Assembly (NCBI GenBank): GCA_963842445.1
Contig: CAWJHF010000003.1
Span: 143,342-207,341, forward strand
Length of the DNA stretch: 64,000 bases
Source of the DNA: an uncultured Verrucomicrobiae bacterium
GTDB lineage: Bacteria; Verrucomicrobiota; Verrucomicrobiia; Limisphaerales; UBA11358
Reading direction: 5' to 3'
How positions within the stretch are numbered: the first letter of the stretch is position 1; every line of letters starts with the position of its first letter. Made by a program: the position numbers and the translations under genes. Of the stretch, positions 46,787 through 59,796 are shown piece by piece. The notes under the pieces were generated by a model that saw only the letters and a program-made list of their open reading frames with translations, did no database searches and was not told the DNA's origin.

Positions 46787-46835
46787 TTTCGCAGCGCAAG
46801 AGATCCCATTCCAAAATATATTCACAAAAATTGTT

Positions 46836-47216
46836 TTAGCGTCTAAGTTCAACCTCGACCATTTCACAATTTTCGTCGAAGCCGCCCTCATCGAGACCTA
46901 CTGAGTACGTTAAATTCATCACACGACCATTTTCCCGAAACAGTTCAGGGTGAGCGCCATGATTGGGCGTCCCACTCATCTCTGACTGTGGCCCTTCCGC
47001 GAGCGTGCTGATAAGCCAATTGTAAGGAACTTTATTGACTGCTAGAATCTTGCCGCTCCTGATGTTCAGTTCAAACGCCACGACTTGCTCTCCCGGCTTT
47101 AGTCGGTCGGGAAAAGACAGTAAAACATCCGGGCCGCTGGCACCTGCCGGGGTGATGTGTGTGCAACCAGCGGCAAACACCGGCAGTAAAGCAAACACGA
47201 GCACGTAAATTCGCAT
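46836..47216 (-). CDS. Distal cassette ORF, putative lipoprotein; no attC found downstream
   Basis: ATG just after GTTAGGT; lipobox-like FAAGC. Confidence 0.6.
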   Translation of the reverse strand: MRIYVLVFALLPVFAAGCTHITPAGASGPDVLLSFPDRLKPGEQVVAFELNIRSGKILAVNKVPYNWLISTLAEGPQSEMSGTPNHGAHPELFRENGRVMNLTYSVGLDEGGFDENCEMVEVELRR

Positions 47217-47219
47217 GGC

Positions 47220-47470
47220 ACCTAACGTCCAGAGCTCAGCCACAGCCACCGGCGGCTGGCTCACGGGTGCAATCTGGACTCTCAAATCTCATAGCTCAAC
47301 CGAAATCTCAAGGGGCAGTGGCCGTTGGCTCCAGCGCGAGGCTGTGTGAAAACTCATTTTTCAACTATTCAATCCATCTGCTCGATTCATCAAAATGCTT
47401 CACAACCCAAATTTGATCGTTACCGAATTTCCTGCCGACACTTTTTACACAGGCTCGCGCAGTGTTAGGC
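47220..47470 (-). repeat. attC interrupted by a MITE
   Basis: ACCTAAC..GCTCAGCCAC...TTGGCTCCAGCGC[MITE]GCGCAGTGTTAGGC. Confidence 0.88.
47338..47456. mobile_element. 119-bp MITE with IS1182-like ends
   Basis: GAGGCTGTGTGAAAA...TTTTACACAGGCTC, flanked by a GCGC duplication; no transposase. Confidence 0.88.
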
Positions 47471-47480
47471 GACGATGTGT

Positions 47481-47760
47481 TCACGGGATATTCTGGGTGT
47501 TCCAGTCATCTCTTTGCAGCTCACCCCAATCAGCAGAAAAAACTTTGTAGCTTTTGGTAAACGGATTGAATTGTAGCAACGCTCGAAATTTGTAATCACC
47601 TGCCTTCGAGCTAGGATCAATCGCCCGACAAATGGCCGTCGGTTCCACATGGTAGGTCCCAAGGACCAATCTATACTCCTCAGATTGTGGAAGACTCGGT
47701 GACTGATATGGAGTGTTGCGTATTATCTGCCTGACTTGACATGACCCTGTCAGGACGACG
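47481..47760 (-). pseudogene. 5'-damaged cassette ORF remnant
   Basis: Open frame LVVLTGSCQVR...DWNTQNIP* ending just before an attC R'' box; no clear start. Confidence 0.35.
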
Positions 47761-47763
47761 AGC

Positions 47764-47974
47764 TAACAACCACGTTTCTACTCCGGCGGTTGCCGTTGCG
47801 CAACCGGTAAATCACCCCCAACTAAAACTGGCGCTGGACATGCATGTCCAATCCATCGTGGTGGCCGCGATGGCCGACGCCCTCCTCAAACCAGTCCGGC
47901 GATTCCGACCGCCGGATTTTCTGAGTTGGGTCAAAAGTCAACAGGCGGCGGGCTGGGCCATCGTCTCCTGCTAG
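47764..47974 (+). pseudogene. Probable IS110-family transposase N-terminal fragment where an attC is expected
   Basis: KLALDMHVQSIVV...FLSWV..Q......VSC* resembles the DEDD N-terminus (LD.H ... SCYEAG), cut at C. Confidence 0.55.
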
Positions 47975-47982
47975 GCGACTGT

Positions 47983-48378
47983 TCATGGCCAAAACCATAA
48001 CCACGTGACGAGCGAGACTAACAGCCCGGCCAACCCCAAAAGCTCGCTCAAACGCAGGCTGCGAAGATAACGAATATAATCCACTGGCAAGCCCGACCGA
48101 GCTGCTCGCCGAACGTCCAATACCGAAAATCCGGCGGCGGCGGCGAAAACGCCAACCATTAGCGATGGTAGCAGCCAATGGCTTTTGCCAATCAGATGTG
48201 GAGCGAGAGCCAGCGCTCCGCCAAGAACAGCCGCTGGAACCAAAAGCAACCACCCATTCTGCTCTGACGAACCGATAAGCTCCTTATGGTCGTCGCTGAG
48301 TGAACGTTTGGCACGCCTCTTGACGAGCACCGCCGCAGCCAGCAGCAGCATAAAAATGATCGCACCTGCGATAAACAT
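47983..48378 (-). CDS. Cassette ORF, 4-TM membrane protein
   Basis: ATG just after GTTAGGC; hydrophobic segments. Confidence 0.7.
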   Translation of the reverse strand: MFIAGAIIFMLLLAAAVLVKRRAKRSLSDDHKELIGSSEQNGWLLLVPAAVLGGALALAPHLIGKSHWLLPSLMVGVFAAAAGFSVLDVRRAARSGLPVDYIRYLRSLRLSELLGLAGLLVSLVTWLWFWP

Positions 48379-48383
48379 AAGTC

Positions 48384-48481
48384 GCCTAACGATCCAAAGC
48401 TGAGCCACGCCGGAACTGCGACATCCGCCAACCGGCGACTTCCCGGCAAACTGAAGGCGTAACCGGCGTTGGCTCCAGCGC
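48384..48481 (-). repeat. attC-A, large half (R'' end displaced to 51048-51061)
   Basis: GCCTAACGATCCAAAGCTGAGCC...TTGGCTCCAGCGC then IS1182. Confidence 0.88.
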
Positions 48482-50154
48482 GAGGCTGTGTGAAAAGTCG
48501 GTCATGATTTGAACAATTACGCCGACGGTTGGTCAGTGACAAGCATGAATCATCGCCCCGGACTGGATCGTTCCCAAACGTTGCTCTTCCCTGAACGACT
48601 GGAGGACTACATCGCCGCCGAAAACCCCGTACGCTTCCTCGACGCCTTCGTCGGTTCGCTCGATCTGCACGCGCTGGGCTTCGCCAAAGCCCGCTGCGCC
48701 GACACGGGCCGTCCCCCTTACGAACCGGCGGCGCTGCTCAAGCTCTACCTTTACGGTTATCTGCACCGAATCCGTTCCAGCCGGTGGCTGGAGGCCGAAT
48801 GCCAGCGCAACGTGGAGGTCATCTGGCTGACGGGCAAACAAGCCCCCGACCACAAGACCATCGCCGATTTCCGCAAGGACAACCTCAAACCGTTGCAGGC
48901 GGTGGCACGGCAGTTCACCGTGCTGTGCCGGAAACTGGAGTTGTTTGGTGGGCAACTGGTGGGAATCGATGGCACCAAGCTGGCGGCGGTCAACAGCAAG
49001 GACGCCCATTTCAATGAAAAGAAACTGCGCGACTTGATCGACCGCGCCGACGCGCAGATTGCCGAATATCTCAAGGGACTGGATGCCACTGACGCGGCGG
49101 AAAGGGCCAGCCCTGTTTGCAGCCGGGCGGAGTTGGCAGCCAAGATCGCGGCGCTGCAGGAGAAAAAGGACTGGCACGAGGAGTTGCTGGGGCAACTGGA
49201 CGCAGAGGAGAAACAAATCTCGGTGAGCGACCCGGACGCGCGGCGGCTGCGGGCTGGCGGCGGTGGCAGCGTGGTGGGTTACAATGTGCAAACGGCGGTC
49301 GATGCGAAGAACAAGCTGATCGCGGCAGCCAACCTGACCAATGAAGAGACGGATTTGCGGCAGTTATCGGGCATGGCACGGGCGGCCAAGGCGAATCTGC
49401 AAGTCGATCAGCTGGAAGTGGTGGCTGACACCGGTTACAGCACGACGGCGGAAGTGGCGGTGTGCGAACAACACGGGATCACGGCGTATGTGCCCAAGGC
49501 CGACACCAGCGCCAACACGGCGCAGGGATTATATGGCAAGAGCCGCTTTACTTACGATGCCACCAAGGATGTGTATGCGTGTCCGGCGGGAGCGGAGTTG
49601 ACTTACCGGTTCAGCACCGATGAAAAAGGACGGCAGGTGCGCTACTACCGGGCCAGCGGGTGCAAGGGCTGCGGGCTCAAGAGACAATGCACGCGCAACA
49701 AGGCCAACCGAACGATCACGCGGGAACAGGATGAAGCCGTGATGGAGGCGATGGCGGCGCGGGTCAAGGCCCACCCGGAGAAGCTCAAACTGCGCAAGCA
49801 GTTGTGCGAACATCCCTTTGGGACGATCAAGCGGTTTTTCGGCTACACCTACTTCCTGATGAAGGGGCTGGCCAAAGTGCGGGCCGAGTGGAGTCTGATG
49901 ACACTGGCCTACAATCTCAAGCGGGTGTTCAATCTGGTAAAGCTCGACCAACTGATGGCGGCGGTGGAGGGCAAAGTCCCGCAGGCGGTCTGAAAGGGGC
50001 GGGCAGACTTCTTTTTGGGCGAGGGGGACGCCCGATCATCCCCGTGGGCTACCATCACGGCTGGAACTTCCAGCCAAAAAAACCGGCGCACGGAATTTCA
50101 AATCACCGGGGAAACATTTTCGCATTCATCGCGCCGGAGTTTTCACACAGGCTC
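48482..50154 (+). mobile_element. IS1182-family insertion sequence, copy 1 (1673 bp)
   Basis: IRs GAGGCTGTGTGAAAA / TTTTCACACAGGCTC, GCGC on both sides. Confidence 0.93.
48545..49993 (+). CDS. IS1182 family transposase
   Basis: GRPPYEP..LLKLYLYGY..I.SSR, PDHKTIADFRK, IDGTK, DPDAR, GYNVQ, ADTGY, EHPFGTIK. Confidence 0.95.
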   Translation: MNHRPGLDRSQTLLFPERLEDYIAAENPVRFLDAFVGSLDLHALGFAKARCADTGRPPYEPAALLKLYLYGYLHRIRSSRWLEAECQRNVEVIWLTGKQAPDHKTIADFRKDNLKPLQAVARQFTVLCRKLELFGGQLVGIDGTKLAAVNSKDAHFNEKKLRDLIDRADAQIAEYLKGLDATDAAERASPVCSRAELAAKIAALQEKKDWHEELLGQLDAEEKQISVSDPDARRLRAGGGGSVVGYNVQTAVDAKNKLIAAANLTNEETDLRQLSGMARAAKANLQVDQLEVVADTGYSTTAEVAVCEQHGITAYVPKADTSANTAQGLYGKSRFTYDATKDVYACPAGAELTYRFSTDEKGRQVRYYRASGCKGCGLKRQCTRNKANRTITREQDEAVMEAMAARVKAHPEKLKLRKQLCEHPFGTIKRFFGYTYFLMKGLAKVRAEWSLMTLAYNLKRVFNLVKLDQLMAAVEGKVPQAV

Positions 50155-50271
50155 GCGCTGGAGCCAACGCCGACTGCCCCTTGAGTTTATGGATGGTTTG
50201 AGTTATACAACGATTATTGAGCTTGCGGAGCCACTTGCCCGTCGGCGTGGCTCAGCTTTGGATCGTTAGGC
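50155..50271 (+). repeat. attC-B, large half, inverted (R'' end at 52735-52748)
   Basis: GCGCTGGAGCCAACGCCGAC...GGCTCAGCTTTGGATCGTTAGGC, 127-bp family in the opposite orientation. Confidence 0.88.
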
Positions 50272-50315
50272 ATCATTTTGTCACAAACATAAATAACAAT
50301 AAATGGAGATTAAAT

Positions 50316-50600
50316 ATGAAACTGAACATTAGAGCGTTTGCGCTGACTTGTGGCATACTCTGGGGACTAGGGCTATTTTCTCTTACTTGGTGGTTTATCG
50401 CATTTGATGGTTCCACCGGAGAGCCTACGCTCATCGGTAAGATATATCGCGGTTATACCATTTCCCCAATCGGCAGCATAATAGGATTGGTATATGCGTT
50501 CTTCGATGCTTTGGTTGGCGGTGCGATATTTGCGTGGCTCTATAATAAGATAGCAGGTTGTGCCGAAGAAAAGCAGAGTCAAGTCAGTCATGATGCCTAA
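50316..50600 (+). CDS. Inverted-segment cassette: small membrane protein of a family often annotated as bacteriophage holin
   Basis: MKLN..AFAL.CG.LWG...Y.GY.....GS.IG..Y.F.D...G..FAWLYN; GGAG RBS. Confidence 0.7.
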   Translation: MKLNIRAFALTCGILWGLGLFSLTWWFIAFDGSTGEPTLIGKIYRGYTISPIGSIIGLVYAFFDALVGGAIFAWLYNKIAGCAEEKQSQVSHDA

Positions 50601-50721
50601 CACCACGCTGGAGCCAACGCCGACTGCCCCTTGAGTTTATGGATGATTTGGGTTATACAACGATTATCGAGCTTGCGGAGCCGCTTGCCCGTCGGCGTGG
50701 CTCAGCTTTGGATCGTTAGGC
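50595..50721 (+). repeat. attC (127-bp family), inverted
   Basis: GCCTAACACCACGCTGGAGCC...GGCTCAGCTTTGGATCGTTAGGC. Confidence 0.92.
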
Positions 50722-50741
50722 CGACTGGCGCATATTTTGTA

Positions 50742-51053
50742 ATGAGACAGCTTTTCTTTTTATCATTGGTGGCTGCGATGATTGCGTCCATCGTTCTCAT
50801 GGTGCGTCGTCCAGTGCGGTTGCTTGCCACTATCCAGATTATTCTTACGGCACTCGTCGTCGTTGGTTTTGCTGTCGGCATGAAGATGGCTTTGTGGATA
50901 CATTCGATGTCCATGTCTGACCCGGTGCGGCAGGAGTGGCAGCCGCGAGTCAGTGTGATTGGAGCCGTTTTGTGGTTTGGGACGATTATTCCGTGGTTAC
51001 TTTTTACGATTTACCATGTCATTATTGTTGTCAGGCGGAAGTCGTCGGCCTAA
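50742..51053 (+). CDS. Inverted-segment cassette: 3-TM membrane protein
   Basis: Stop TAA lies inside R'' (GCCTAAC). Confidence 0.7.
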   Translation: MRQLFFLSLVAAMIASIVLMVRRPVRLLATIQIILTALVVVGFAVGMKMALWIHSMSMSDPVRQEWQPRVSVIGAVLWFGTIIPWLLFTIYHVIIVVRRKSSA

Positions 51054-51061
51054 CACCGCGC

Positions 51062-52734
51062 GAGCCTGTGTGAAAACTCCGGCGCGATGAATGCGAAAAT
51101 GTTTCCCCGGTGATTTGAAATTCCGTGCGCCGGTTTTTTTGGCTGGAAGTTCCAGCCGTGATGGTAGCCCACGGGGATGATCGGGCGTCCCCCTCGCCCA
51201 AAAAGAAGTCTGCCCGCCCCTTTCAGACCGCCTGCGGGACTTTGCCCTCCACCGCCGCCATCAGTTGGTCGAGCTTTACCAGATTGAACACCCGCTTGAG
51301 ATTGTAGGCCAGTGTCATCAGACTCCACTCGGCCCGCACTTTGGCCAGCCCCTTCATCAGGAAGTAGGTGTAGCCGAAAAACCGCTTGATCGTCCCAAAG
51401 GGATGTTCGCACAACTGCTTGCGCAGTTTGAGCTTCTCCGGGTGGGCCTTGACCCGCGCCGCCATCGCCTCCATCACGGCTTCATCCTGTTCCCGCGTGA
51501 TCGTTCGGTTGGCCTTGTTGCGCGTGCATTGTCTCTTGAGCCCGCAGCCCTTGCACCCGCTGGCCCGGTAGTAGCGCACCTGCCGTCCTTTTTCATCGGT
51601 GCTGAACCGGTAAGTCAACTCCGCTCCCGCCGGACACGCATACACATCCTTGGTGGCATCGTAAGTAAAGCGGCTCTTGCCATATAATCCCTGCGCCGTG
51701 TTGGCGCTGGTGTCGGCCTTGGGCACATACGCCGTGATCCCGTGTTGTTCGCACACCGCCACTTCCGCCGTCGTGCTGTAACCGGTGTCAGCCACCACTT
51801 CCAGCTGATCGACTTGCAGATTCGCCTTGGCCGCCCGTGCCATGCCCGATAACTGCCGCAAATCCGTCTCTTCATTGGTCAGGTTGGCTGCCGCGATCAG
51901 CTTGTTCTTCGCATCGACCGCCGTTTGCACATTGTAACCCACCACGCTGCCACCGCCGCCAGCCCGCAGCCGCCGCGCGTCCGGGTCGCTCACCGAGATT
52001 TGTTTCTCCTCTGCGTCCAGTTGCCCCAGCAACTCCTCGTGCCAGTCCTTTTTCTCCTGCAGCGCCGCGATCTTGGCTGCCAACTCCGCCCGGCTGCAAA
52101 CAGGGCTGGCCCTTTCCGCCGCGTCAGTGGCATCCAGTCCCTTGAGATATTCGGCAATCTGTGCGTCGGCGCGGTTGATCAAGTCGCGCAGTTTCTTTTC
52201 ATTGAAATGGGCGTCCTTGCTGTTGACCGCCGCCAGCTTGGTGCCATCGATTCCCACCAGTTGCCCACCAAACAACTCCAGTTTCCGGCACAGCACGGTG
52301 AACTGCCGTGCCACCGCCTGCAACGGTTTGAGGTTGTCCTTGCGGAAATCGGCGATGGTCTTGTGGTTGGGGGCTTGTTTGCCCGTCAGCCAGATGACCT
52401 CCACGTTGCGCTGGCATTCGGCCTCCAGCCACCGGCTGGAACGGATTCGGTGCAGATAACCGTAAAGGTAGAGCTTGAGCAGCGCCGCCGGTTCGTAAGG
52501 GGGACGGCCCGTGTCGGCGCAGCGGGCTTTGGCGAAGCCCAGCGCGTGCAGATCGAGCGAACCGACGAAGGCGTCGAGGAAGCGTACGGGGTTTTCGGCG
52601 GCGATGTAGTCCTCCAGTCGTTCAGGGAAGAGCAACGTTTGGGAACGATCCAGTCCGGGGCGATGATTCATGCTTGTCACTGACCAACCGTCGGCGTAAT
52701 TGTTCAAATCATGACCGACTTTTCACACAGCCTC
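51062..52734 (-). mobile_element. IS1182-family insertion sequence, copy 2 (1673 bp, inverted)
   Basis: Near-identical to copy 1 (APDHK/APNHK and LIDRA/LINRA differ); GCGC flanks. Confidence 0.93.
51223..52671 (-). CDS. IS1182 family transposase
   Basis: Same protein as 48545-49993 except two D>N changes. Confidence 0.95.
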   Translation of the reverse strand: MNHRPGLDRSQTLLFPERLEDYIAAENPVRFLDAFVGSLDLHALGFAKARCADTGRPPYEPAALLKLYLYGYLHRIRSSRWLEAECQRNVEVIWLTGKQAPNHKTIADFRKDNLKPLQAVARQFTVLCRKLELFGGQLVGIDGTKLAAVNSKDAHFNEKKLRDLINRADAQIAEYLKGLDATDAAERASPVCSRAELAAKIAALQEKKDWHEELLGQLDAEEKQISVSDPDARRLRAGGGGSVVGYNVQTAVDAKNKLIAAANLTNEETDLRQLSGMARAAKANLQVDQLEVVADTGYSTTAEVAVCEQHGITAYVPKADTSANTAQGLYGKSRFTYDATKDVYACPAGAELTYRFSTDEKGRQVRYYRASGCKGCGLKRQCTRNKANRTITREQDEAVMEAMAARVKAHPEKLKLRKQLCEHPFGTIKRFFGYTYFLMKGLAKVRAEWSLMTLAYNLKRVFNLVKLDQLMAAVEGKVPQAV

Positions 52735-52742
52735 GCGCGGTG

Positions 52743-53114
52743 TTAGGCCGAAACGCTTCGTCGAGAAAACAATAAGATGCCAGCCGAAGCGACCGCCAAG
52801 ACATCAAACGCAACTCCGACAGCAGAATATGGAGCCTGATCAAAAAATGCGAATAATCCCATCAAGCTCGCCGTCACGGTGAGGAGCGCAACAATCCCCA
52901 TGAGAATACTCGCCCATCTCGCTCCCCGGAAAACATAAAAGCTGCCCACCGTGCCAACCAGATACAAAAGTGCAAAAAATGTGACCACCGCCAAACCATC
53001 GGGGCGGTAATTGGTGGTGGTGACGATGTAGCGAACAGCCAATGATAACGAAACGCACAAATAGCCGCAAATCGCTATCCAAAGTATTCCGAGAATCTGA
53101 TGTATCGTTTTCAT
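52743..53114 (-). CDS. Cassette ORF, 4-TM membrane protein
   Basis: Fills the cassette; stop in R''. Confidence 0.75.
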   Translation of the reverse strand: MKTIHQILGILWIAICGYLCVSLSLAVRYIVTTTNYRPDGLAVVTFFALLYLVGTVGSFYVFRGARWASILMGIVALLTVTASLMGLFAFFDQAPYSAVGVAFDVLAVASAGILLFSRRSVSA

Positions 53115-53130
53115 AGTTATGTCGGTTTCG

Positions 53131-53257
53131 GCCTAACGATCCAAAGCTGAGCCACGCCGACCGGCGAGCGGCTCCGCAATCTCGATAACCGTTGTATAAC
53201 TCAAACCATCCATAAACTCAAGGGGCAGTCGGCGTTGGCTCCAGCGCGGTGTTAGGC
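53131..53257 (-). repeat. attC (127-bp family)
   Basis: GCCTAAC...GTTAGGC with GCTGAGCC / GGCTCCAGC L boxes. Confidence 0.93.
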
Positions 53258-53260
53258 CAC

Positions 53261-53725
53261 TCATCCATGTGCCTGAATCTCCTTCTGACGCTGCTCCGGC
53301 AAATGTGAAATCACTTCAGCAGGCACGGCACAAGGGAAATGTGAATCGAAGTTAGTCCCTCTAAATACTCCGGGGTAAGTCGCGCTTCCGCTCGACTTGT
53401 CACCATGAGTCTCTGTGTAAAGCCAAATAATACGGTTGCCGTCATAAGCCCACACTCTGGACTTGTTCTCAATAAAGACGAACCAGCCCGCCTGTGCATT
53501 CCATTTGAAGCTCACACCGCCGGAGGCGGGATGTGCAAAATCTATCAAATCTTCCGAGACTCCAATTTTCCAAGATTCATCCGGCGTAGTCTGTGTGCAG
53601 AACGTGGTAATAAACATCGGCTGAAACGGTGGCGGTGCTGCTGCTTGGGTGTGAACCGGTGAAGGCGAGTGACATCCCACGAGCAATGTCACGGCGACGA
53701 ATAGGATTGGAATGGTGTAGCGCAT
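53261..53725 (-). CDS. Cassette ORF, putative lipoprotein
   Basis: MRYTIPILFVAVTLLVGC lipobox. Confidence 0.75.
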   Translation of the reverse strand: MRYTIPILFVAVTLLVGCHSPSPVHTQAAAPPPFQPMFITTFCTQTTPDESWKIGVSEDLIDFAHPASGGVSFKWNAQAGWFVFIENKSRVWAYDGNRIIWLYTETHGDKSSGSATYPGVFRGTNFDSHFPCAVPAEVISHLPEQRQKEIQAHG

Positions 53726-53734
53726 AGTAAAGTG

Positions 53735-53833
53735 GCCTAACGAAAAAAGCTGAGCCACCGCCGACCTGCGACGTGAACCGCGATAGCGGAACGGACAGCG
53801 CCAACGGCGGTTGGCTCCGGCGACTTGTTAGGC
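53735..53833 (-). repeat. attC (99-bp family)
   Basis: GCCTAAC..GCTGAGCCACCGCC...GGCGGTTGGCTCCGGCGACTTGTTAGGC. Confidence 0.92.
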
Positions 53834-53847
53834 CACCAACGAAAAAT

Positions 53848-54117
53848 ATGAAAATAATACTCGAAGTAGAAAACGCGAATCCGTTCCAAGCTGGATGGCT
53901 CGCCTGCCACATGGGACTGCCGAAAGACAGTCTCAAGCTCAAAGGCATCTCGCAAGAATCGTGGAACGAAGGATGGAGAATGCGCCAAGAAACCGCCGAC
54001 ATGGAAACTCCCGACGATGCGGGACACGGCGGCTGCCATGTCGCTTTCCTGATGGAAGCAACCAACCCGCTGCCTGAATTTGTGCGCCATAAAGTGAGCG
54101 TGCGACTGGTGGCCTAA
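53848..54117 (+). CDS. Reverse-oriented cassette ORF, Rmf/CrpP-like motif
   Basis: FQAGW.A...G......SW.EGW; frame open back to GTG 53773 inside attC; stop is the TAA of the next core site. Confidence 0.55.
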   Translation: MKIILEVENANPFQAGWLACHMGLPKDSLKLKGISQESWNEGWRMRQETADMETPDDAGHGGCHVAFLMEATNPLPEFVRHKVSVRLVA

Positions 54118-54238
54118 CGATCCAAAGCTGAGCCACGCCGACGGGCGAGCGGCTCCGCAATCTCGATAACCGTTGTCCAACTCAAACCGTCCATAAACTC
54201 AAGGGGTAGTCGGCGTTGGCTCCAGCGCGGTGTTAGGC
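54112..54238 (-). repeat. attC (127-bp family)
   Basis: Near-identical to 53131-53257. Confidence 0.93.
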
Positions 54239-54239
54239 G

Positions 54240-54581
54240 TCATGGATAAACTCTCTGGCCATCCACCAAACAGGATGGTGGCTCACCTACTCGCCCGATG
54301 GTGTAAGTCCCGCCTGCTGGACGAACGACCACACCATTCGTGGCGTAGCAATTTGTAATCCCACCGTTGAGATAAGGCAAAAGCTCCGCCCATGTCGGCG
54401 TATCATTGGTGGTCTTGCCGGTTTCATACATCCACTCGGTCTTGGCTCCCTCAATCTGTCGCAAACTATTGACGTAAAAATTGGATGATGATGTGGAACG
54501 TGCTCTGATGAAATTCGGGATAGCGACTGCCAAAACCACCACGGCAATCGCCGCCAGAACTATGATGAACACTTTCGACAT
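54240..54581 (-). CDS. Cassette ORF, pilin/pseudopilin-like without a prepilin cleavage motif
   Basis: TM then AIPNFIRAR..S...NSLRQIEGAK..W. Confidence 0.65.
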   Translation of the reverse strand: MSKVFIIVLAAIAVVVLAVAIPNFIRARSTSSSNFYVNSLRQIEGAKTEWMYETGKTTNDTPTWAELLPYLNGGITNCYATNGVVVRPAGGTYTIGRVGEPPSCLVDGQRVYP

Positions 54582-54594
54582 ACGCTCGAATGAC

Positions 54595-54721
54595 GCCTAA
54601 CGATCCAAAGCTGAGCCACGCCGACGGGCGAGCGGCTCCGCAAACTCGATAATCGTTGTATAACCCAAATCATCCATAAACTCAAGGGGCAGTCGGCGTT
54701 GGCTCCAGCGCGGTGTTAGGC
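54595..54721 (-). repeat. attC (127-bp family)
   Basis: Near-identical to 53131-53257. Confidence 0.93.
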
Positions 54722-54725
54722 GGCG

Positions 54726-55139
54726 TCATTGTGAACCTCTATCTGCTACCCACTTCTTCATGTGCTCGTCCACATCTCTGAAGACCGCTGGAATGTCAGA
54801 CGCATGGACTTGTGCCATCTGTTCGCGCGTCATGCCCACGTCACCAAAGCCGGGCCACTTCTCACGAAGATACCGAATATGCTCCCTCGCGCAAGGCTCG
54901 CACATGAAACTAACCCGATGTGTGCCGCTCATAAGCGCCAGAGGGTCATATCCTCCGCTGAATGGCTCGCCGCCACAATACCGGCAACCTGCCTTCAACG
55001 CGGTGGTCATCTCATGCGCTTGGGTCGGACTGGAAGCCGCAAAACACTCATCACATAAATCCCTGGATGTGACCGCATCACCCATAATCGTGTTGAAGTG
55101 GCAAGTGGCTTCTCGCTGATGGCAAATCTCGCAAAGCAT
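54726..55139 (-). CDS. Cassette ORF with four CxxC motifs, McsA-like N-terminus
   Basis: MLCEICHQREATCH...LCDEC, CRYC, CEPC. Confidence 0.7.
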   Translation of the reverse strand: MLCEICHQREATCHFNTIMGDAVTSRDLCDECFAASSPTQAHEMTTALKAGCRYCGGEPFSGGYDPLALMSGTHRVSFMCEPCAREHIRYLREKWPGFGDVGMTREQMAQVHASDIPAVFRDVDEHMKKWVADRGSQ

Positions 55140-55154
55140 ATCGTGATGTGAGCC

Positions 55155-55253
55155 GCCTAACGTAGAAAGCTGAGCCACCGCCGACTCGCGACGTGAACCG
55201 CGACAGCGGAACTGACAGCAACTCCGGCGGTTGGCTCCGGCGACTTGTTAGGC
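55155..55253 (-). repeat. attC (99-bp family)
   Basis: Similar to 53735-53833. Confidence 0.92.
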
Positions 55254-55658
55254 CGAACGTCCATATCTCAAAACAACAATGATGTAATACGCCAATGATG
55301 TAAATACTGGAACTAGACCAATCAAACCCCACTGCCAAGAAGCAAAATAATGGCTGTCTGTTCCGGGATTGTGGATAACCAACAACAGAGATATGGCGGC
55401 GAGGGAAGCACATATAGTGCGGCGAATGCTCGCAAACAATCTGATGGAGTCGCTGCGAAATCCAAAAAGCATACGCAAAATCTCACCGCAGCCCCAAATC
55501 AAGATAATCGCATTCGTGAATATCAACACGGGAATACCAAACGCGGCTATGACGAAAAATAGGAATGTGGGAACGCCGAGTATGACCAAGCCGCCAATCT
55601 CAAATATCGAAAGAAATATCGTGAGTGCCAATCTGGTATTTTTGCTTGTCAAATCCAT
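55248..55658 (-). CDS. Cassette ORF, multi-TM membrane protein
   Basis: Hydrophobic; stop in R''; start 55658 or 55670. Confidence 0.7.
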   Translation of the reverse strand: MDLTSKNTRLALTIFLSIFEIGGLVILGVPTFLFFVIAAFGIPVLIFTNAIILIWGCGEILRMLFGFRSDSIRLFASIRRTICASLAAISLLLVIHNPGTDSHYFASWQWGLIGLVPVFTSLAYYIIVVLRYGRSA

Positions 55659-55674
55659 ACGATGTGGCATTTCG

Positions 55675-55803
55675 GCCTAACGATCCAAAGCTGAGCCACG
55701 GCGAGCGGAAAGGCGGTCTGAAATGAAACCGCACCGTCCAAATTTCCGCACACGGTCGAAAACTAAAGGAACACTCGCCGTTGGCTCCAGCGCGGTGTTA
55801 GGT
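55675..55803 (-). repeat. attC (129 bp)
   Basis: GCCTAAC..GCTGAGCCACGGCGAG...CTCGCCGTTGGCTCCAGC..GTTAGGT. Confidence 0.92.
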
Positions 55804-55834
55804 GTCATGGTTGAAGGTGAAAAAGACATGATGG

Positions 55835-56239
55835 CTATGACTGTGGTGCTCCCAAATCAGCGAGTAGCTTGCGTAGCCGGTGAATCTCTCCCACCAACGC
55901 CGGAACATCTTCGCGTGCCTTCGATATGAAATCCTTATCCGCATCTTTGCCAACACACTCAAGCGCCACCGTGAGCGTCGGCTTGCCGGCATCGCTCGAC
56001 TTGCGAAGCCGCTCAACCCAATACGGCTCGCCACCAATCTTGCCTGCTGGAAATATGACGTTGTCATTATCAAACCGGCGTCCGTCTGGTGTAAAGCTCT
56101 CCATCGGAGTCTTGGTGTGCAAACCTCCTGCGTCGGATGTCTTCTTATCGTCGGTGTGCTTGCCGGGCCGCCAATACCACGGACCAGGTGTCGCTCGGTC
56201 GGCTCGCTGCTCAATCTCCTCAATTTCTTTGATGGTCAT
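55835..56239 (-). CDS. Cassette ORF, phage Ead/Ea22-like protein
   Basis: EI..RA.RATPGPW ... D.DFI..AREDVPALV.EI.RLR motif typical of small phage early proteins. Confidence 0.7.
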   Translation of the reverse strand: MTIKEIEEIEQRADRATPGPWYWRPGKHTDDKKTSDAGGLHTKTPMESFTPDGRRFDNDNVIFPAGKIGGEPYWVERLRKSSDAGKPTLTVALECVGKDADKDFISKAREDVPALVGEIHRLRKLLADLGAPQS

Positions 56240-56263
56240 AAAATCAAAACGTGCCGCAATGAC

Positions 56264-56362
56264 ACCTAACGTTCAGAGCTCAGGCACGCGGGGACAACCA
56301 GCGTGAACCGCGAAGCGGAACTGCAACGGCCATCCCGCGTTGCCTGCAGCGATTTGTTAGCC
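56264..56362 (-). repeat. attC (99-bp family, diverged)
   Basis: ACCTAAC..GCTCAGGCACGCGGG...CCCGCGTTGCCTGCAGC..GTTAGCC. Confidence 0.9.
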
Positions 56363-56381
56363 CACGTCTTCATTCGTCCGA

Positions 56382-56834
56382 TCATCTCTTCTCGAAAATC
56401 ATCGTCTCGTCGCTGTCAGGGTCACCGAAAATCATGACAACACGATAAGGTGCTTGCTTGCCGCTCAAACATGCGTCCTCGATGCGGGGCTGAGAATCAA
56501 ACCGCACACCCCACATGTCGTGTCCATCAGTCGAGCCAACAATCGCACATCTCCAGCGACCGGTCGTTGACAAGAAATCTGACTGCCCCGAATTCACATA
56601 GTTCGTCACACCAAATGCCCCATCCGGCTTCAAATCCAATCGGCACTGTCGCCCATGAAGCACGGCCAGCCCATTGGTCGTAACGGACTGCGCAACGAGC
56701 ACATAACTGCCTACCACATCTTCCTTCTTCGGCTCATTGGTCGTGAACGGCTTCCCGGATACAGCTCCGGCATTAAAACCGGAGTCGCAACCAGCAGCCA
56801 AGAGCGAAACGAGAATGACGAGCAGCAAGCGCAT
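56382..56834 (-). CDS. Cassette ORF, putative lipoprotein
   Basis: MRLLLVILVSLLAAGC lipobox. Confidence 0.78.
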   Translation of the reverse strand: MRLLLVILVSLLAAGCDSGFNAGAVSGKPFTTNEPKKEDVVGSYVLVAQSVTTNGLAVLHGRQCRLDLKPDGAFGVTNYVNSGQSDFLSTTGRWRCAIVGSTDGHDMWGVRFDSQPRIEDACLSGKQAPYRVVMIFGDPDSDETMIFEKR

Positions 56835-56837
56835 GTG

Positions 56838-56963
56838 GGCTAACGTCCAAGCTCAGCCACCGCCGCGGAGGATGGCGCTGAACTGCAATCCTGACAATCG
56901 AATTTCATAAAATCGTCCAACTGACCGGCGTAGCGGCGGTTGGCTGCAGCGCCATTGTTAGGC
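56838..56963 (-). repeat. attC (126 bp)
   Basis: GGCTAAC..GCTCAGCCACCGCCGC...GCGGCGGTTGGCTGCAGC..GTTAGGC. Confidence 0.9.
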
Positions 56964-57410
56964 ATACGAAAATATCTCTCCTCTTCGGAACCGGACACGG
57001 CTCAAAATGAGTGAAAGCGGCCACGGTGCCGACAGAAATATCGTAATCGCCCAAAACTCAAGCGTCTCAAAAAACTGGTCAAAAAGTATATCAAACTCGA
57101 CAACTATCAAAAACAAACTAACGCAAAGCGGTAATAGGGAGACGATAAGCGATGGACCGAAAACTATCCGCGAAAAAACGAGCCAACGATTTGGGATAAC
57201 CACGAGGACGGCAAGCAGCGATACAATGATGATGGAAAAGTATAGCCGGTGGTAATATGCTGGAGTCCCCCAATCTGTTGCGTCGCGAGGTGGCGAGGCG
57301 GCGCGCAACATATAAATATCCAAACCAATCATAAACCAAGCAACTGCGATTGCTTCGATACTCGCGAAGATTTTGCAAGCAATGGCGGGTGGTTTCAAAC
57401 TCGATTGCAT
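56958..57410 (-). CDS. Cassette ORF, 4-TM membrane protein
   Basis: Hydrophobic; stop in R''. Confidence 0.72.
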   Translation of the reverse strand: MQSSLKPPAIACKIFASIEAIAVAWFMIGLDIYMLRAASPPRDATDWGTPAYYHRLYFSIIIVSLLAVLVVIPNRWLVFSRIVFGPSLIVSLLPLCVSLFLIVVEFDILFDQFFETLEFWAITIFLSAPWPLSLILSRVRFRRGEIFSYA

Positions 57411-57422
57411 GGGGCGTAGTAT

Positions 57423-57548
57423 GCCTAACGAAAAAAGCTGAGCCACGCCGACCGGCGAGCGGCTCCGCAATCTCGATAATCGTTGTATAACCTAAACCAT
57501 CCATAAACTCAAGGGGCAGTCGGCGTTGGCTCCAGCGCGGTGTTAGGC
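57423..57548 (-). repeat. attC (127-bp family, 126 bp)
   Basis: Near-identical loop to 53131-53257. Confidence 0.93.
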
Positions 57549-57833
57549 CGTCGTCTTTCGTGTGCCATAATTCCAAAAGAAATGTATGAGCGCAACGTCC
57601 ATGCCGGCAACCAACACGAAAATCACAAAAGCCTCACGACTCGCATTAACAGAATCCTGCCGCTCCGCTTCCGCAATAGCCGCATCCTGCTCCGCCTTGG
57701 GACTTGATTGATGTGTCGTCAGAGCCTGCATCATGCGTGGACTGACTCTCGACCCAAAGTGTGGCATGAGCATCCAGAGCAACTGCACAGCAATGAAACT
57801 AACAATCAACAGTCTTACAATGTTCTTGCTCAT
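57543..57833 (-). CDS. Cassette ORF, 2-TM protein
   Basis: Fills the cassette; stop in R''. Confidence 0.72.
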   Translation of the reverse strand: MSKNIVRLLIVSFIAVQLLWMLMPHFGSRVSPRMMQALTTHQSSPKAEQDAAIAEAERQDSVNASREAFVIFVLVAGMDVALIHFFWNYGTRKTTA

Positions 57834-57850
57834 CGCGAGTAACGGACGCG

Positions 57851-57985
57851 GCCTAACGACTCAAGCTCAGCCACAGCCACGACGAACGCGGCTGAGGCCG
57901 GGCAAAACCAAAAGGATGAAAATGCAAAATAATCATACGCAAAACTGCCGGGGCAGTGGCTGTTGGCTGCAGCGCATTGTTAGGC
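57851..57985 (-). repeat. attC (135 bp)
   Basis: GCCTAAC..GCTCAGCCACAGCCAC...GTGGCTGTTGGCTGCAGC..GTTAGGC. Confidence 0.92.
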
Positions 57986-57986
57986 A

Positions 57987-58283
57987 TCAGCCCATCGAAC
58001 CTCCGCCGGAAACGTTTGGTCTATCCGTCAAAGTATTATGAAGCTCTTCGATTTGCTTTTGCTGCCTCTGTATCTGCTCGTCTTTCTCGCGTATGGCGCG
58101 CTCGATGGCTGCCTCACACTTTTTGTCGGCGGCGGCAAGCTGCTTGTCAAGCTCGTTTATCTTAGTAACCGCCGTCTCATGCTCGTGCTCGATGCGCTCA
58201 TTCTTTTTGTGGAGTCTGATAGCCCACATAAAAAGAACAATGGACAGCGATGCGAAGAAACCGGCTGTAATGGTCATGTCCAT
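57987..58283 (-). CDS. Cassette ORF, N-terminal TM plus coiled coil
   Basis: MDMTITAGFFASLSIVLFMW then E/K/Q-rich heptads. Confidence 0.7.
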   Translation of the reverse strand: MDMTITAGFFASLSIVLFMWAIRLHKKNERIEHEHETAVTKINELDKQLAAADKKCEAAIERAIREKDEQIQRQQKQIEELHNTLTDRPNVSGGGSMG

Positions 58284-58303
58284 ATTTCTAAAGCGACGCT
58301 GAT

Positions 58304-58425
58304 GCCTAACGATGGCGCTGAGGCGTGCGCTCCCAAACCAAACGCCAACCCGAAAGGATAAATATGGCAAATGACAATCGCATAACTGAGGGCGTAATCG
58401 CATCGCCTCCAGCAACTTGTTATCC
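58304..58425 (-). repeat. attC of the first cassette (122 bp)
   Basis: GCCTAAC..GCTGAGGCG...CGCCTCCAGC..GTTATCCGC; R'' complements GCGGATAAC at the attI junction over 9 bp. Confidence 0.85.
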
Positions 58426-58690
58426 GCGAAAGGCGACACAATACGAAGGCGAACTCATCCAGCACAGCACATGCCCGCACTGCTCTCATACACCACTCCG
58501 CGAAGGGCCGCACGGCGGGATGTCTCTCAATGTTCTGTGCCCTAAATGCCATCACGAATTTATGTGCGCTCCGGCGCCGACGTGGTGCGAAATGATGGGG
58601 CCAGCATCCGCAGACCGGCTCGCGTGGCCATACGGAATCAAAGCGGATAACAGTATTTCGGTTGAAGTTTCACGGTCTAATTCCGCTTGA
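58364..58690 (+). CDS. Reverse-oriented first-cassette ORF (zinc ribbon) starting inside attC and stopping inside attI
   Basis: GAAAGGA-ATG in the attC loop; CPHC..L.EGP.GG.S.N..CPKC. Confidence 0.65.
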   Translation: MANDNRITEGVIASPPATCYPRKATQYEGELIQHSTCPHCSHTPLREGPHGGMSLNVLCPKCHHEFMCAPAPTWCEMMGPASADRLAWPYGIKADNSISVEVSRSNSA

Positions 58691-58695
58691 TTTTT
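58645..58695 (-). other. attI site (core GTTATCC on the minus strand)
   Basis: Last GTT core before intI, not part of a palindrome; upstream boundary approximate. Confidence 0.75.
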
Positions 58696-58698
58696 GAC

Positions 58699-58727
58699 AT
58701 TAGAAGCTTGTAAAAGACCGTTGTCAA
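58699..58727 (-). promoter_or_regulatory. Candidate cassette promoter Pc
   Basis: TTGACA-17nt-TCTAAT on the minus strand, pointing into attI. Confidence 0.5.
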
Positions 58728-58743
58728 GTGCAATTTTTCATTA

Positions 58744-59796
58744 ATGAATGTCCAACCACCCATCGGCGAAAGGCTGCACCGGCCATTGGAAAGGCTGACG
58801 CCCAATCCCAAACTGAAATTCATGGACCAGTGCCGGGAGGTGATGCGGTTCCACCGGCTGGCGTTGCGCACAGAGGAGGCGTATTTGCAGTGGATCAAAC
58901 GGTTTATTCTCTTTCATCATAAACGGCATCCCAAGGAGATGGGGGAAGCGGAGGTGGAAGCTTTTCTGACGCATCTGGCAGCGGACCGGCTGGTGGCGGC
59001 CAGCACGCAAAACCAGGCGTTGGGGGCGTTGTTGTTCATGTATCAAAAGGTGCTGGGGCGGGAGCTGGAGTTTATGGAGGGGTTTGACCGGGCGCAGCGG
59101 CGGCAGCGGGTGCCGGTGGTGCTGAGCCGGGAGGAGGCGCGGCGGCTGTTGACGGCGGTGCCGGAAAAATACCGGTTGTTCTGCCAGTTGCTTTACGGAA
59201 CGGGGATGCGGTTGATGGAGGGATTGCGGCTGCGGGTGAAGGATGTGGATTTTGAGCGGAATCAGATTGTGGTGCATGACGGCAAGGGGATGAAGGACCG
59301 GGTGACGATGCTGCCCGACAAGCTAAAGCTTGAACTCCAACGGCACCTGGAACGAGTAAAATTATTGCATGAGAAGGATCTGGCGGCGGGGCTGGGAACG
59401 GTCTGGCTGCCGGGGGCGTTGAAGGTGAAGTATCCGGGCGCGGAACGGGAATGGGTGTGGCAGTGGGTTTTTCCCGCGTCGGGATTATCGAACGATCCGC
59501 AGAGTGTGAATCCCGGCGCGCACGGAGCAACGCGCTCCACCTTGCGGCGGCATCATTTGAATGAGACGAGTGTGCAACGGGTGATGAAGGAGGCGGTGGC
59601 GGTGGCGCGGATTGACAAGCGGGCAAGCTGCCATACGCTGCGGCATTCGTTTGCGACGCATCTTTTGGAGAATGGCTATGATATCCGGACGGTGCAGGAT
59701 TTACTCGGACACAAGGATGTGACGACAACGCAGATTTACACACACGTGATGCAGAAACCGGGAATCGGGGTGAGGAGTCCGCTGGACAGTATGTAG
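58744..59796 (+). CDS. intI: Integron integrase
   Basis: [22 protein letters not shown], integron-specific VWLP.AL..KYP.A..EW.WQWVFPA..RHH insertion, [26 protein letters not shown]. Confidence 0.97.

Follow-up and report, generated by a model that had tools for sequence, protein, structure and literature searches.

We found that the window, the whole stretch of 64,000 nucleotides analysed here, carries a classical chromosomal integron made up mostly of ordinary sense cassettes, plus two of reverse polarity (cassettes 1 and 10). In the reading that we consider probable, the gene of cassette 1 starts inside the cassette's own recombination site, at an ATG in the attC loop (position 58364), the gene of cassette 10 starts at an ATG of its own, and the other loop ATGs are not used. 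In both reverse-polarity cassettes, the gene lies on the bottom strand of attC, with the cassette's own attC at its 5' end. Related cassette arrays, from bacteria and from phages, also show the layout with the start in the cassette's own attC, and we found no published description of it.

The integron belongs to the chromosome of a Verrucomicrobiota bacterium. Its integrase gene, intI, encodes a tyrosine recombinase whose best tblastn matches are in MAGs of Verrucomicrobiota; contig C1 carries a second copy, which matches it at 1051 of 1053 nucleotides. The attC array adjoins intI and extends leftwards from it, and intI is divergent from the sense cassettes. The same geometry is seen at 80 related intI loci, where 151 of 152 attC hits share the strand of intI and the 150 hits used are, without exception, upstream of intI. 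Within the window's own genome, sense orientation was called for 44 of 51 cassettes. Comparison with the genome's second integron fixes the attI junction, as identity between the two starts at 58648 (TAAC...); contigs from other metagenomes depart from the window sequence at 58651. The array also carries IS insertions in attC sites and one inversion bounded by IS copies.

Table 1. Features of the integron, in window coordinates
Feature	Position	Strand	Observation
IS copies	48509-49993 and 51223-52707	+ and -, respectively	segment between them is inverted
Rest of the cassette array, sense genes	46800..58303	-	attC hits and ORFs
attC of cassette 10 (99 nt), with GTG 53773	53735..53833	+	one frame open across the whole site
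Reversed gene of cassette 10 (89 aa)	53848..54117	+	own ATG 15 nt past attC; TAA stop is that of the cassette-terminal GCCTAA
attC with loop ATG 55723	55675..55803	+	start unused by a gene
attC of cassette 2, loop with AAGGA and ATG 57916/57922	57851..57985	+	starts unused by a gene
attC of cassette 1, bottom strand on +	58304..58425	+	covariance model R1, 64.6 bits on the + strand
Cassette 1, reverse polarity (own attC, then gene body)	58310..58650	+	complementary ends GGATAA/C (58645-58651) and R'' GTTATCC (58419-58425)
ORF1, candidate 108-aa zinc-ribbon protein	58364..58690	+	residues 1-20 from attC, 21-96 from the cassette body, 97-108 from attI
attI side of the junction	58651..58743		crossover between 58650 and 58651
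intI, integron integrase gene (350 aa)	58744..59796	+	Pfam Phage_integrase (E = 3.1e-37) and Phage_int_SAM_4 (E = 3.5e-30)

The attC sites are genuine: their R and L boxes are paired, two bases are bulged in the 3' arm on the + strand, and 7 of 20 consensus pairs show compensatory changes (from the alignment and the fold). The attC model has 66 matches in the genome, and the + strand of the window is the bottom strand of attC. The original prediction was that attC doubles as a ribosome binding site and N-terminal leader for reversed cassettes, and it named four starts on this strand. All four are present (ATG 58364 after GAAAGGA, ATG 57916/57922 after AAGGA, ATG 55723 after GGAAAGG, and GTG 53773), and all four frames cross the 3' arm of attC (L''/R'') without a stop. 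The idea of a start and leader module holds up for reverse-polarity cassettes and breaks down as a general property of attC. Within the window, two of the four starts face sense genes and a third is passed over in favour of the gene's own ATG; the + strand of the commonest attC type (127 nt, 4 copies) lacks any ATG. The original prediction also saw a hint about the origin of cassettes, on which these results have no direct bearing.

In cassette 1, the attC loop contains GAAAGGA (58352-58358) followed by ATG 58364, which opens a frame beginning MANDNRITEG (ORF1). A HMMER search with ORF1 gave 97 matches at E ≤ 1e-3, and the conserved core starts at residue 21, which is the exact end of attC. 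The best match, P0057 (E = 3.6e-22, residues 21-92 of the query), is not part of any cassette, and an ATG of its own precedes the shared core by about 10 codons. The AF2 model of ORF1 has pLDDT values of 95-98 at residues 21-90 and of 57-69 at both ends. From residue 2 to residue 52, ORF1 has no in-frame ATG, GTG, or TTG, and the only alternative start, an in-frame GTG at 58325, is likewise inside attC. Translation of the zinc-ribbon protein would have to begin in the unpaired attC loop, at ATG 58364; the frame would pass through the L''/R'' arm, giving an unstructured leader of about 20 residues, and would then span the cassette body, which corresponds exactly to the predicted folded core. 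(The predicted fold of the attC RNA is no more stable than that of shuffled sequences, and it pairs the ATG in part.) The anatomy, the cassette boundaries, the homology, the need for this start, and the recurrence of the layout elsewhere are observed; we infer that ATG 58364 is used and that a promoter serves the + strand. Because ORF1 has no stop of its own within the cassette, it ends 13 codons into attI. With its start in attC and its stop beyond the cassette, the start moves with the cassette and the tail depends on the neighbour. Cassette 1 is indeed a discrete, mobile unit of attC plus body with an AAC boundary: metagenome runs X2 and X3 contain 58308-58651 with 0-3 differences and with different flanks at both ends.

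The lack of a stop within the cassette means that the C-terminus varies with context, and it could also mean that a gene fragment is being carried without function. Cassette 1 would then be a silent, end-trimmed piece of a reversed gene, and the frame into attC and attI would be a leftover from which no protein is made. This is unlikely. It would fit with the absence of both a start and a stop from the cassette body, with an ORF1 tail that differs among other array contexts, and with a word-based search that gave no close relative of the window's protein. It would also fit with our failure to find any RNA run containing the stretch or any sigma-70-like promoter on either strand of 57800-58800, but the promoter scan may be ill suited to this phylum, as it also missed the expected cassette promoter. 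A silent fragment does not explain, however, why the entire conserved core has been kept and folds confidently, why the copies in other metagenomes are so similar, or why the start-in-attC layout is found again in independent reversed genes. Furthermore, R'' of cassette 1 is GTTATCC instead of the usual GTTAGGC, and the usual form would place a TAG in the ORF1 frame.

Cassette 10 also has a genuine reversed gene, and GTG 53773 is in frame with it. The seven homologues P0001, P0003, and P0005-P0009 (55-89% identity) all start at the methionine that matches ATG 53848; across the family, 8 of 8 members start at this position, which is outside attC. This conserved ATG rules out GTG 53773 as a needed start, and cassette 10 would use its own ATG, just beyond attC. 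The claim that in two cassettes these starts lead into the only plausible gene was thus right for ATG 58364 and wrong for GTG 53773; a start available only in the cassette's own attC loop was found for cassette 1 and not for cassette 10. The peptide encoded by the attC of cassette 10 is found in 47 database "proteins", at the start of 12 of them and in the middle or at the C-terminus of the other 35.

The starts at 57916/57922 and 55723 were rejected as gene starts because they are antisense to sense-strand genes and their frames stop early. The + strand ORF from 57922 stops at 58041, just 56 nt into the cassette (there are 2 stops within the body in the frame of the ATG), and opposite it, on the - strand, is an ORF (57987-58283) that matches Pfam Holin_BhlA at 25 bits (cutoff 22.6). 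The ORF from 55723 ends 126 nt into its cassette, whose 460-nt body has 7 stops in that frame and whose best ORF (55835-56239) is on the - strand. These loop ATGs probably come from an attC subfamily with a common loop sequence and would go unused by the sense cassettes.

A second alternative is that chance and composition account for every loop start, ATG 58364 included, with none of them functional: the loops are purine-rich on the bottom strand, so SD-like words and ATGs would arise freely there. Among 97 intact attC sites (of 116; the other 19 were cut off at the ends or split by an IS), 11 bottom-strand loops had an SD-like motif and an ATG whose frame was open to the end of attC, as compared to 7.0 ± 2.2 in 300 dinucleotide shuffles of the loops. 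As 20 of the 300 shuffles reached 11, the enrichment that had been proposed as a check of the original prediction is not significant. On the top strand, there was 1 such loop versus 2.0 in the shuffles, and bottom-strand loop ATGs were below the shuffle expectation (52 versus 63.2). These counts imply that the strand asymmetry is mostly compositional. Chance would also agree with the finding that two of the three frames cross the attC arms without a stop, with the early ends of two of the four named starts against sense genes, and with the little use of SD motifs in this genome: gene starts show no enrichment of SD-like motifs (9% of 383, versus 7% of 326 internal ATGs), so the ribosome binding site part of the proposal is doubtful for this host, and GAAAGGA may be irrelevant. 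Nevertheless, we consider chance decidedly unlikely, as it leaves unexplained a homology-supported core that begins exactly at the end of attC with no other start, a strand-specific association of loop ATGs with frames that span the cassette, and the recurrence of this layout across four unrelated gene families.

That association was found in a set of 386 frames, all on the bottom strand and drawn from four sources. The frame was open across the cassette in 28 of 75 cases with a loop ATG, versus 16 of 311 without one (odds ratio 11, p = 4.5e-12), and there was no association in the top-strand control (5/24 with a loop ATG versus 65/277 without). Similarly, in 19 cassettes with an SD-like motif and ATG, the frame of the ATG was free of stops in 11, versus 3 of 38 for the other bottom-strand frames. 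In the window's own genome, just 3 of 8 such frames span their own cassette, which speaks against the main reading; in IMG/VR contigs with the same attC family, the loop-ATG frame is open through the body in 13 of 18 cassettes.

Besides ORF1 and the gene of cassette 10, the genes found on the attC bottom strand are a DUF4326 gene, Dam, and methylases, all in related arrays. A DUF4326 cassette (E = 6.6e-25) that is present in three copies at locus L120 has its domain from residue 29, and the next start is at residue 40. For a Dam methylase cassette at L180 (E = 4.2e-30), the next start is at residue 60, and a Dam-like cassette at L182, behind a 201-nt attC, likewise needs a start in its own attC. 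For the N6_N4 methylase at L183 and the methylase at L119, a GTG just beyond attC could serve instead. Stops supplied by the neighbour also recur: attI provides the stop of ORF1, and the next attC loop provides those of ORFs at L119 and L120. The reversed genes in the related arrays belong to phage-type families (phrog_464, phrog_111, phrog_67, and phrog_954).

It is very improbable that the gene of cassette 1 starts instead at a non-canonical codon just past attC, or by reinitiation, with the leader outside the protein: many family members do start just 2-8 residues ahead of the shared motif, the true start of cassette 10 is just beyond its attC, and the leader is predicted to be unstructured, but the stretch without any in-frame ATG, GTG, or TTG speaks against it, and other family members bear N-terminal extensions of 20-50 residues, which implies that a leader is tolerated.

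Going beyond a start at ATG 58364, a bolder and doubtful proposal is that the bottom strand forms a second translated layer in arrays carrying this attC subfamily: loop-ATG frames would be kept free of stops across whole cassettes even opposite genuine sense genes and a chain of ORFs would run from loop to loop, often with ATGA overlaps, to within about 50 nt of intI. ORFs do tile the + strands of L119 (3327 to 5891) and L120 (1699 to 5894), and one of the overlapped sense genes is backed by remote homologues (34% identity, E = 1.4e-22). In shuffles of synonymous codons, the probability of having no stop ranged from <0.0003 to 0.092 for 7 of 8 such cassettes and was 0.36 for the other one; these eight were chosen for being open, the signal is from two or three arrays, and the coding strand is mostly unsettled. 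As a control, in 106 sense genes the antisense stops were as numerous as expected and 3 of 318 frames were free of stops. If the proposal is true, translated antisense transcription could drive or tune the expression of the integrase, and antisense transcription could also expose the recombinogenic bottom strand.

A classical cassette is a promoterless ORF followed by its attC, and it is expressed from Pc. The integron in the window has the same intI, attI, attC hairpins (with R/L boxes and extrahelical bases), and conserved AAC boundary, and most of its cassettes share this layout. In contrast, the coding strand of cassettes 1 and 10 is the attC bottom strand, so that attC is at the 5' end of the gene, and the attC of cassette 1 holds the start codon and about 20 codons.

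ORF-11 and ORF-18 in attI1, along with short attC ORFs, assist the translation of downstream cassettes, according to the portion of PMC8876359 that we consulted. There too, a recombination site contains a translation start and a frame crosses the crossover point. However, those ORFs are short and on the sense strand, and they act by coupling or by hairpin melting for the next cassette (same portion of PMC8876359); the start in cassette 1 lies on the other strand and continues in frame into the gene of the cassette itself. We rejected a leader ORF of the ORF-11 type because the starts in the window are antisense and are either fused to their own cassette or run against it.

In the chromosomal integrons of Vibrio, toxin-antitoxin cassettes are reverse-oriented, two-gene modules with their own promoters (PMC11023631, in the sections available to us). 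They resemble the reversed cassettes in that Pc does not read their genes, and those sections describe no start codon in attC. The reversed cassettes here are instead single small phage-type genes that are trimmed to the cassette ends. We rejected an inverted cassette of the toxin-antitoxin type for cassette 1: it has a single 108-aa ORF with no toxin-antitoxin family in Pfam and no promoter-like site (in a scan that is weak for this phylum).

Phage clusters of attC sites (CALINs) carry orphan DNA methyltransferases, according to the part of PMC9892861 at hand; that part is silent on the polarity of the genes and on attC-internal starts. The gene types (methylases) are the same, and the same attC family is found in IMG/VR contigs. 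The layout here differs in its setting, a chromosomal integron of a bacterium, where it sits immediately upstream of intI and points in its direction.

In the textbook view, an integron cassette is a promoterless gene with its recombination site behind it, and attC is treated as non-coding DNA. In a reversed cassette, attC would give the start codon and the first ~20 codons, and the neighbouring site would give the stop. Coding would also constrain the sequence of attC, as R'' of cassette 1 is off consensus just where the consensus would make a stop. For annotation, this means that reversed cassette genes are liable to be given wrong starts or to be omitted, and that open attC frames yield spurious database proteins, such as the 47 above. 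For models of expression, it means that reversed genes cannot be read from Pc; their direction is towards intI. Finally, the phage-type families among the reversed genes (methylases and DUF4326) bear on the passage of cassettes between phage and bacterial pools.

The window holds an integron in which intI, the gene for a tyrosine-recombinase integrase, adjoins an array of attC sites (see the table for coordinates). Twelve of these sites could be aligned with their R and L boxes paired. Compensatory changes occur in 7 of 20 pairs of the alignment, and two columns are bulged, both in the + strand's 3' arm. A covariance model made from the twelve aligned sites (R1) matched 66 sites in the same genome, spread over several arrays. 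The closest relatives of IntI are found in MAGs of Verrucomicrobiota (Limisphaerales-type). The intI of a second integron in this genome matches the window's at 1051 of 1053 nt, and its attI is also nearly identical. The first cassette of the second integron differs from that of the window integron.

On three independent grounds, the + strand is the bottom strand of the attC sites: the extrahelical bases sit in its 3' arm; R1 matches fall on the strand of intI; and the unit that moves consists of an attC and the DNA on its right. For the second of these, we turned 80 IntI loci by the direction of intI, and found that 151 of 152 model matches were on the intI strand and that all of the matches used (150/150) were upstream of intI. 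As to the moving unit, identity between the window and the second integron begins at 58648, and contigs from two lake-water runs (X2 and X3) contain 58308-58651 with 0-3 differences and different sequence beyond both ends. Because the moving unit is an attC and its right-hand DNA, cassette 1 spans 58310-58650. Its end (GGATAA/C) pairs with its own R'' box.

The original prediction was that attC loops supply a ribosome binding site, a start codon, and an N-terminal leader to genes that are reversed within their cassettes, and it named four starts on the + strand (ATG 58364, ATG 57916/57922, ATG 55723, and GTG 53773). All four are present in the sequence, and each reads out via L''/R''. The idea of a start and leader within attC holds for cassette 1, and it also holds for a class of cassettes that recurs and that we call reverse-polarity cassettes (those whose gene is on the attC bottom strand, with the cassette's own attC at the gene's 5' end), but it is wrong or unneeded at the other three sites.

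In cassette 1, ATG 58364 is preceded by GAAAGGA and opens a frame of 108 amino acids (ORF1), which reads toward intI; the ATG of intI is 54 nt past the ORF1 stop. A HMMER search of 1.84 billion representatives gave 97 matches at E <= 1e-3, and these define a family of zinc ribbons with two CxxC motifs. The best match was P0057 (E 3.6e-22, query 21-92). The conserved core begins at residue 21, which is the end of the attC, and the final 13 codons are attI sequence. The AlphaFold2 model has pLDDT values of 95-98 at residues 21-90 and of 57-69 at residues 1-20 and 91-108. There is no in-frame ATG, GTG, or TTG between residues 1 and 53. Judging from the sequence, ATG 58364 is needed if the ORF1 gene is expressed at all. 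The R'' box of cassette 1 is GTTATCC; the consensus, GTTAGGC, would put a TAG in the frame of ORF1.

P0057, the closest homologue of ORF1, lies outside any cassette and has an ATG of its own. Two other homologues (P0059 and P0070) have N-terminal extensions that are similar to the ORF1 leader. In searches beside those ORF1 homologues whose DNA was covered, which do not include P0059 and P0070, the R1 model found no attC. A word-based protein search with ORF1 gave no match, and neither Pfam nor PHROGs assigned it to a family. The RNA fold of attC1, the attC of cassette 1, has a z-score of -0.04 and so counts neither for nor against the reading. A sigma-70-like scan, which may not suit this phylum, identified no promoters or terminators on either strand of 57800-58800, and the runs listed as containing 57800-59300 include DNA contigs only and no RNA run.

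We asked whether a bottom-strand frame with an ATG in the attC loop is open across the body of its own cassette, with frames that lack a loop ATG as the controls. We considered cassettes from the window's own genome, class relatives, IntI loci, and IMG/VR contigs (attC pattern search); we counted a frame only if it had no stop in the attC's 3' arm, dropped near-duplicate bodies, and excluded bodies of more than 1200 nt. The body was at least 90% open for 14 of 22 frames with a Shine-Dalgarno-like sequence (SD) and ATG in the loop, for 14 of 53 with a loop ATG and no SD, and for 16 of 311 with no loop ATG. With any loop ATG, the proportion was 28/75 (versus none, odds ratio 11, Fisher p 4.5e-12). 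In the top-strand control, which starts in the attC of the upstream cassette and runs on into the body, the proportions were 5/24 and 65/277 (p = 1). Within 19 cassettes with SD and ATG, the frame of the ATG was stop-free in 11, and the other two bottom-strand frames were stop-free in 3 of 38 cases. The signal is uneven across sources (3/8 in the own genome, 9/12 in IntI loci, and 13/19 in IMG/VR), and that from the IntI loci comes nearly all from two arrays, L119 and L120. For dN/dS on cassette bodies, all-against-all blastn yielded too few homologous pairs.

Enrichment of SD and ATG in the loops, compared by strand to shuffled loops as was suggested with the original prediction, was not significant. 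In 97 intact attC sites (from 116, of which 66 were from the own genome and 50 from relatives' loci; 19 truncated or IS-split sites were left out), we observed 11 bottom-strand cases of SD and ATG open to the attC end versus 7.0 +/- 2.2 in 300 loop shuffles, and 20 of the 300 shuffles had 11 or more. These loops are not independent because they come from a single attC subfamily, whose members share a loop sequence. Bottom-strand ATGs of any kind numbered 52, with 63.2 expected from the shuffles, and on the top strand there was 1 case of SD and ATG open to the attC end, with 2.0 expected. Thus, composition largely accounts for the raw difference between the strands in the own genome (10/66 versus 1/66). 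That attC acts as a ribosome binding site is doubtful in this host: an SD-like 4-mer lies ahead of 9% of 383 fairly unambiguous starts versus 7% of 326 internal ATGs, and translation initiation in this genome seems to be largely SD-independent.

As for the other three starts, GTG 53773 is in frame with a genuine reversed gene in cassette 10. In all 8 aligned members of that gene's family (55-89% identity), however, the first residue corresponds to the Met of ATG 53848, which is 15 nt beyond the attC end. A scan of genome contigs for the family found no relative. The 99-nt type of attC has one frame that is open throughout, which is the frame of GTG 53773. Its peptide, carried by many metagenome proteins (P0010-P0056), is conserved at about 95% identity over many metagenome contigs. 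We found 47 database "proteins" that match only this peptide, of which 12 have it at the start and 35 have it internally or at the C terminus. Since the frame is fully open, dozens of deposited gene-caller "proteins" are read-throughs of attC. The remaining two starts each oppose a - strand ORF: the frame from ATG 57916/57922 ends 56 nt into the body and has 2 stops, and the frame from ATG 55723 ends 126 nt into the body and has 7 stops. The - strand ORF of cassette 2, which is opposed by ATG 57916/57922, exceeds the Pfam threshold for BhlA holin.

Related arrays contain reversed genes with identifiable domains (table), all from phage-type families according to PHROGs. In the DUF4326 cassette, no start codon precedes residue 40 other than the loop ATG and a GTG in the arm of the attC. 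In L182, the variable loop of the attC codes for 52 residues, including two CxxC pairs, at the N terminus of the downstream Dam-like methylase, so the two arms of this attC bracket the 5' part of the gene. For the methylases of L183 and L119, there is a GTG a few codons beyond the attC, so the start is ambiguous. Many such reversed ORFs lack a stop within their own cassette and terminate in attI or in the loop of the following attC. For reverse-polarity cassettes, the anatomy, the need for the start in attC, and the recurrence are shown.

Features of the window and of related arrays and contigs
Feature	Location	Strand	Details
intI, tyrosine-recombinase integrase	58744-59796	+	Pfam Phage_integrase E 3.1e-37, SAM_4 E 3.5e-30
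attC array	~58700 to ~46800		runs leftwards; attC sites
attC1 (cassette 1)	58304-58425
ORF1	58364-58690	+	zinc-ribbon protein
Cassette 2 attC	57851-57985
99-nt attCs	53735-53833 (cassette 10), 55155-55253
Reversed gene, cassette 10	53848-54117	+
Second integron	C1:393918-395753
DUF4326 cassette	L120, three copies		Pfam E 6.6e-25; domain from residue 29
Dam methylase	L180		E 4.2e-30; next start at residue 60
Dam-like methylase	L182, attC 11427-11627		201-nt attC
N6_N4 methylase	L183		E 7.5e-33
Methylase	L119:5283		phrog_954, E 4.7e-60
Loop-to-loop ORF tiling	L119:3327-5891; L120:1699-5894	+
IS, 494-aa DDE transposase	48440-50140	+	Pfam DDE_Tnp_1_6, DUF772
IS, 494-aa DDE transposase	51060-52735	-	Pfam DDE_Tnp_1_6, DUF772
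Same IS elsewhere	C1:385873, C4:463913, L089, L140
Segment between the IS copies	50141-51059		inverted; two cassettes, one and a half attCs
Miniature MITE-like IS derivative	~47340-47460
371-aa ORF	C1:383479, C1:390530, C9:187562	attC bottom strand	each starts 53 nt past attC end
371-aa ORF fragment	47741-47974

For counting reversed cassettes, we rejected coding-strand classifiers, as both miscall validated genes: a genome-trained 3-periodic Markov model chose the right frame for 615 of 728 held-out pieces and miscalled one validated sense gene, and a cassette-trained model called three validated reversed genes "sense." Strand tallies are therefore only rough. By these rough calls, the own genome has 44 sense and 7 reverse cassettes (n = 51), five of the 7 being IS insertions and one doubtful, and 37 of 40 in class relatives are sense. 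Thus, reverse-polarity cassettes are a small minority in the own genome; L119, L120, and the IMG/VR arrays have many of them.

In several arrays and genomes, the IS with a 494-aa transposase has inserted at one and the same point of the 3' arm of attC, which follows ...CCAGCGCG; it looks like a DDE-type IS that targets attC. Its miniature derivative is at the same attC position. The segment between the two inverted copies in the window is itself inverted, with a match of the model to its attC on the - strand. Similar partial array inversions mediated by IS have been demonstrated experimentally in Vibrio cholerae (PMC11023631). The 371-aa ORF, which has a fragment in the window array, is probably another IS transposase.

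On the + strand of L119 and L120, ORFs are tiled from loop to loop with frequent ATGA overlaps, and the last ends about 47 nt before intI. Some overlap sense genes that are plausible; one such sense gene, in L120, is validated by remote homologues (34% identity, E 1.4e-22), next to which the R1 model found no attC. For eight cassettes that were picked because they are open, and whose coding strand is unsettled for most, synonymous-codon shuffles with the sense protein fixed gave a stop-free bottom frame with P <0.0003, 0.006, 0.024, 0.002, 0.004, 0.092, 0.008, and 0.36. For 106 control sense genes, antisense stops were as expected, and 3, 0, and 0 of 106 had stop-free frames. We regard the stop-free antisense frames opposite sense genes in L119 and L120 as an unexplained extra and not as the finding.

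On the sense strand, starts inside recombination sites are known: attI1 contains ORF-11 and ORF-18, and attC can contain short ORFs that assist the next cassette (PMC8876359). The excerpts consulted also describe antisense promoters in gene-less cassettes (10.1101/2023.11.21.568050) and phage attC clusters that bear methylases (PMC9892861). Neither literature searches nor the portions consulted of these three sources, PMC11023631, and 10.1101/2022.02.06.479319 gave a mention of a reverse cassette gene that starts inside its own attC, though supplements may list orientations.

In a reverse-polarity cassette, the gene lies on the bottom strand with its 5' end at its own attC, and its start codon is most likely the one in the unpaired attC loop. 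We infer that the loop ATG is actually used, and likewise the source of + strand transcription. In the most likely mechanism, translation would pass through the L''/R'' arm, which would yield a short unstructured leader; the frame would then cross a body cut down to the conserved core, and would terminate in whichever site adjoins.
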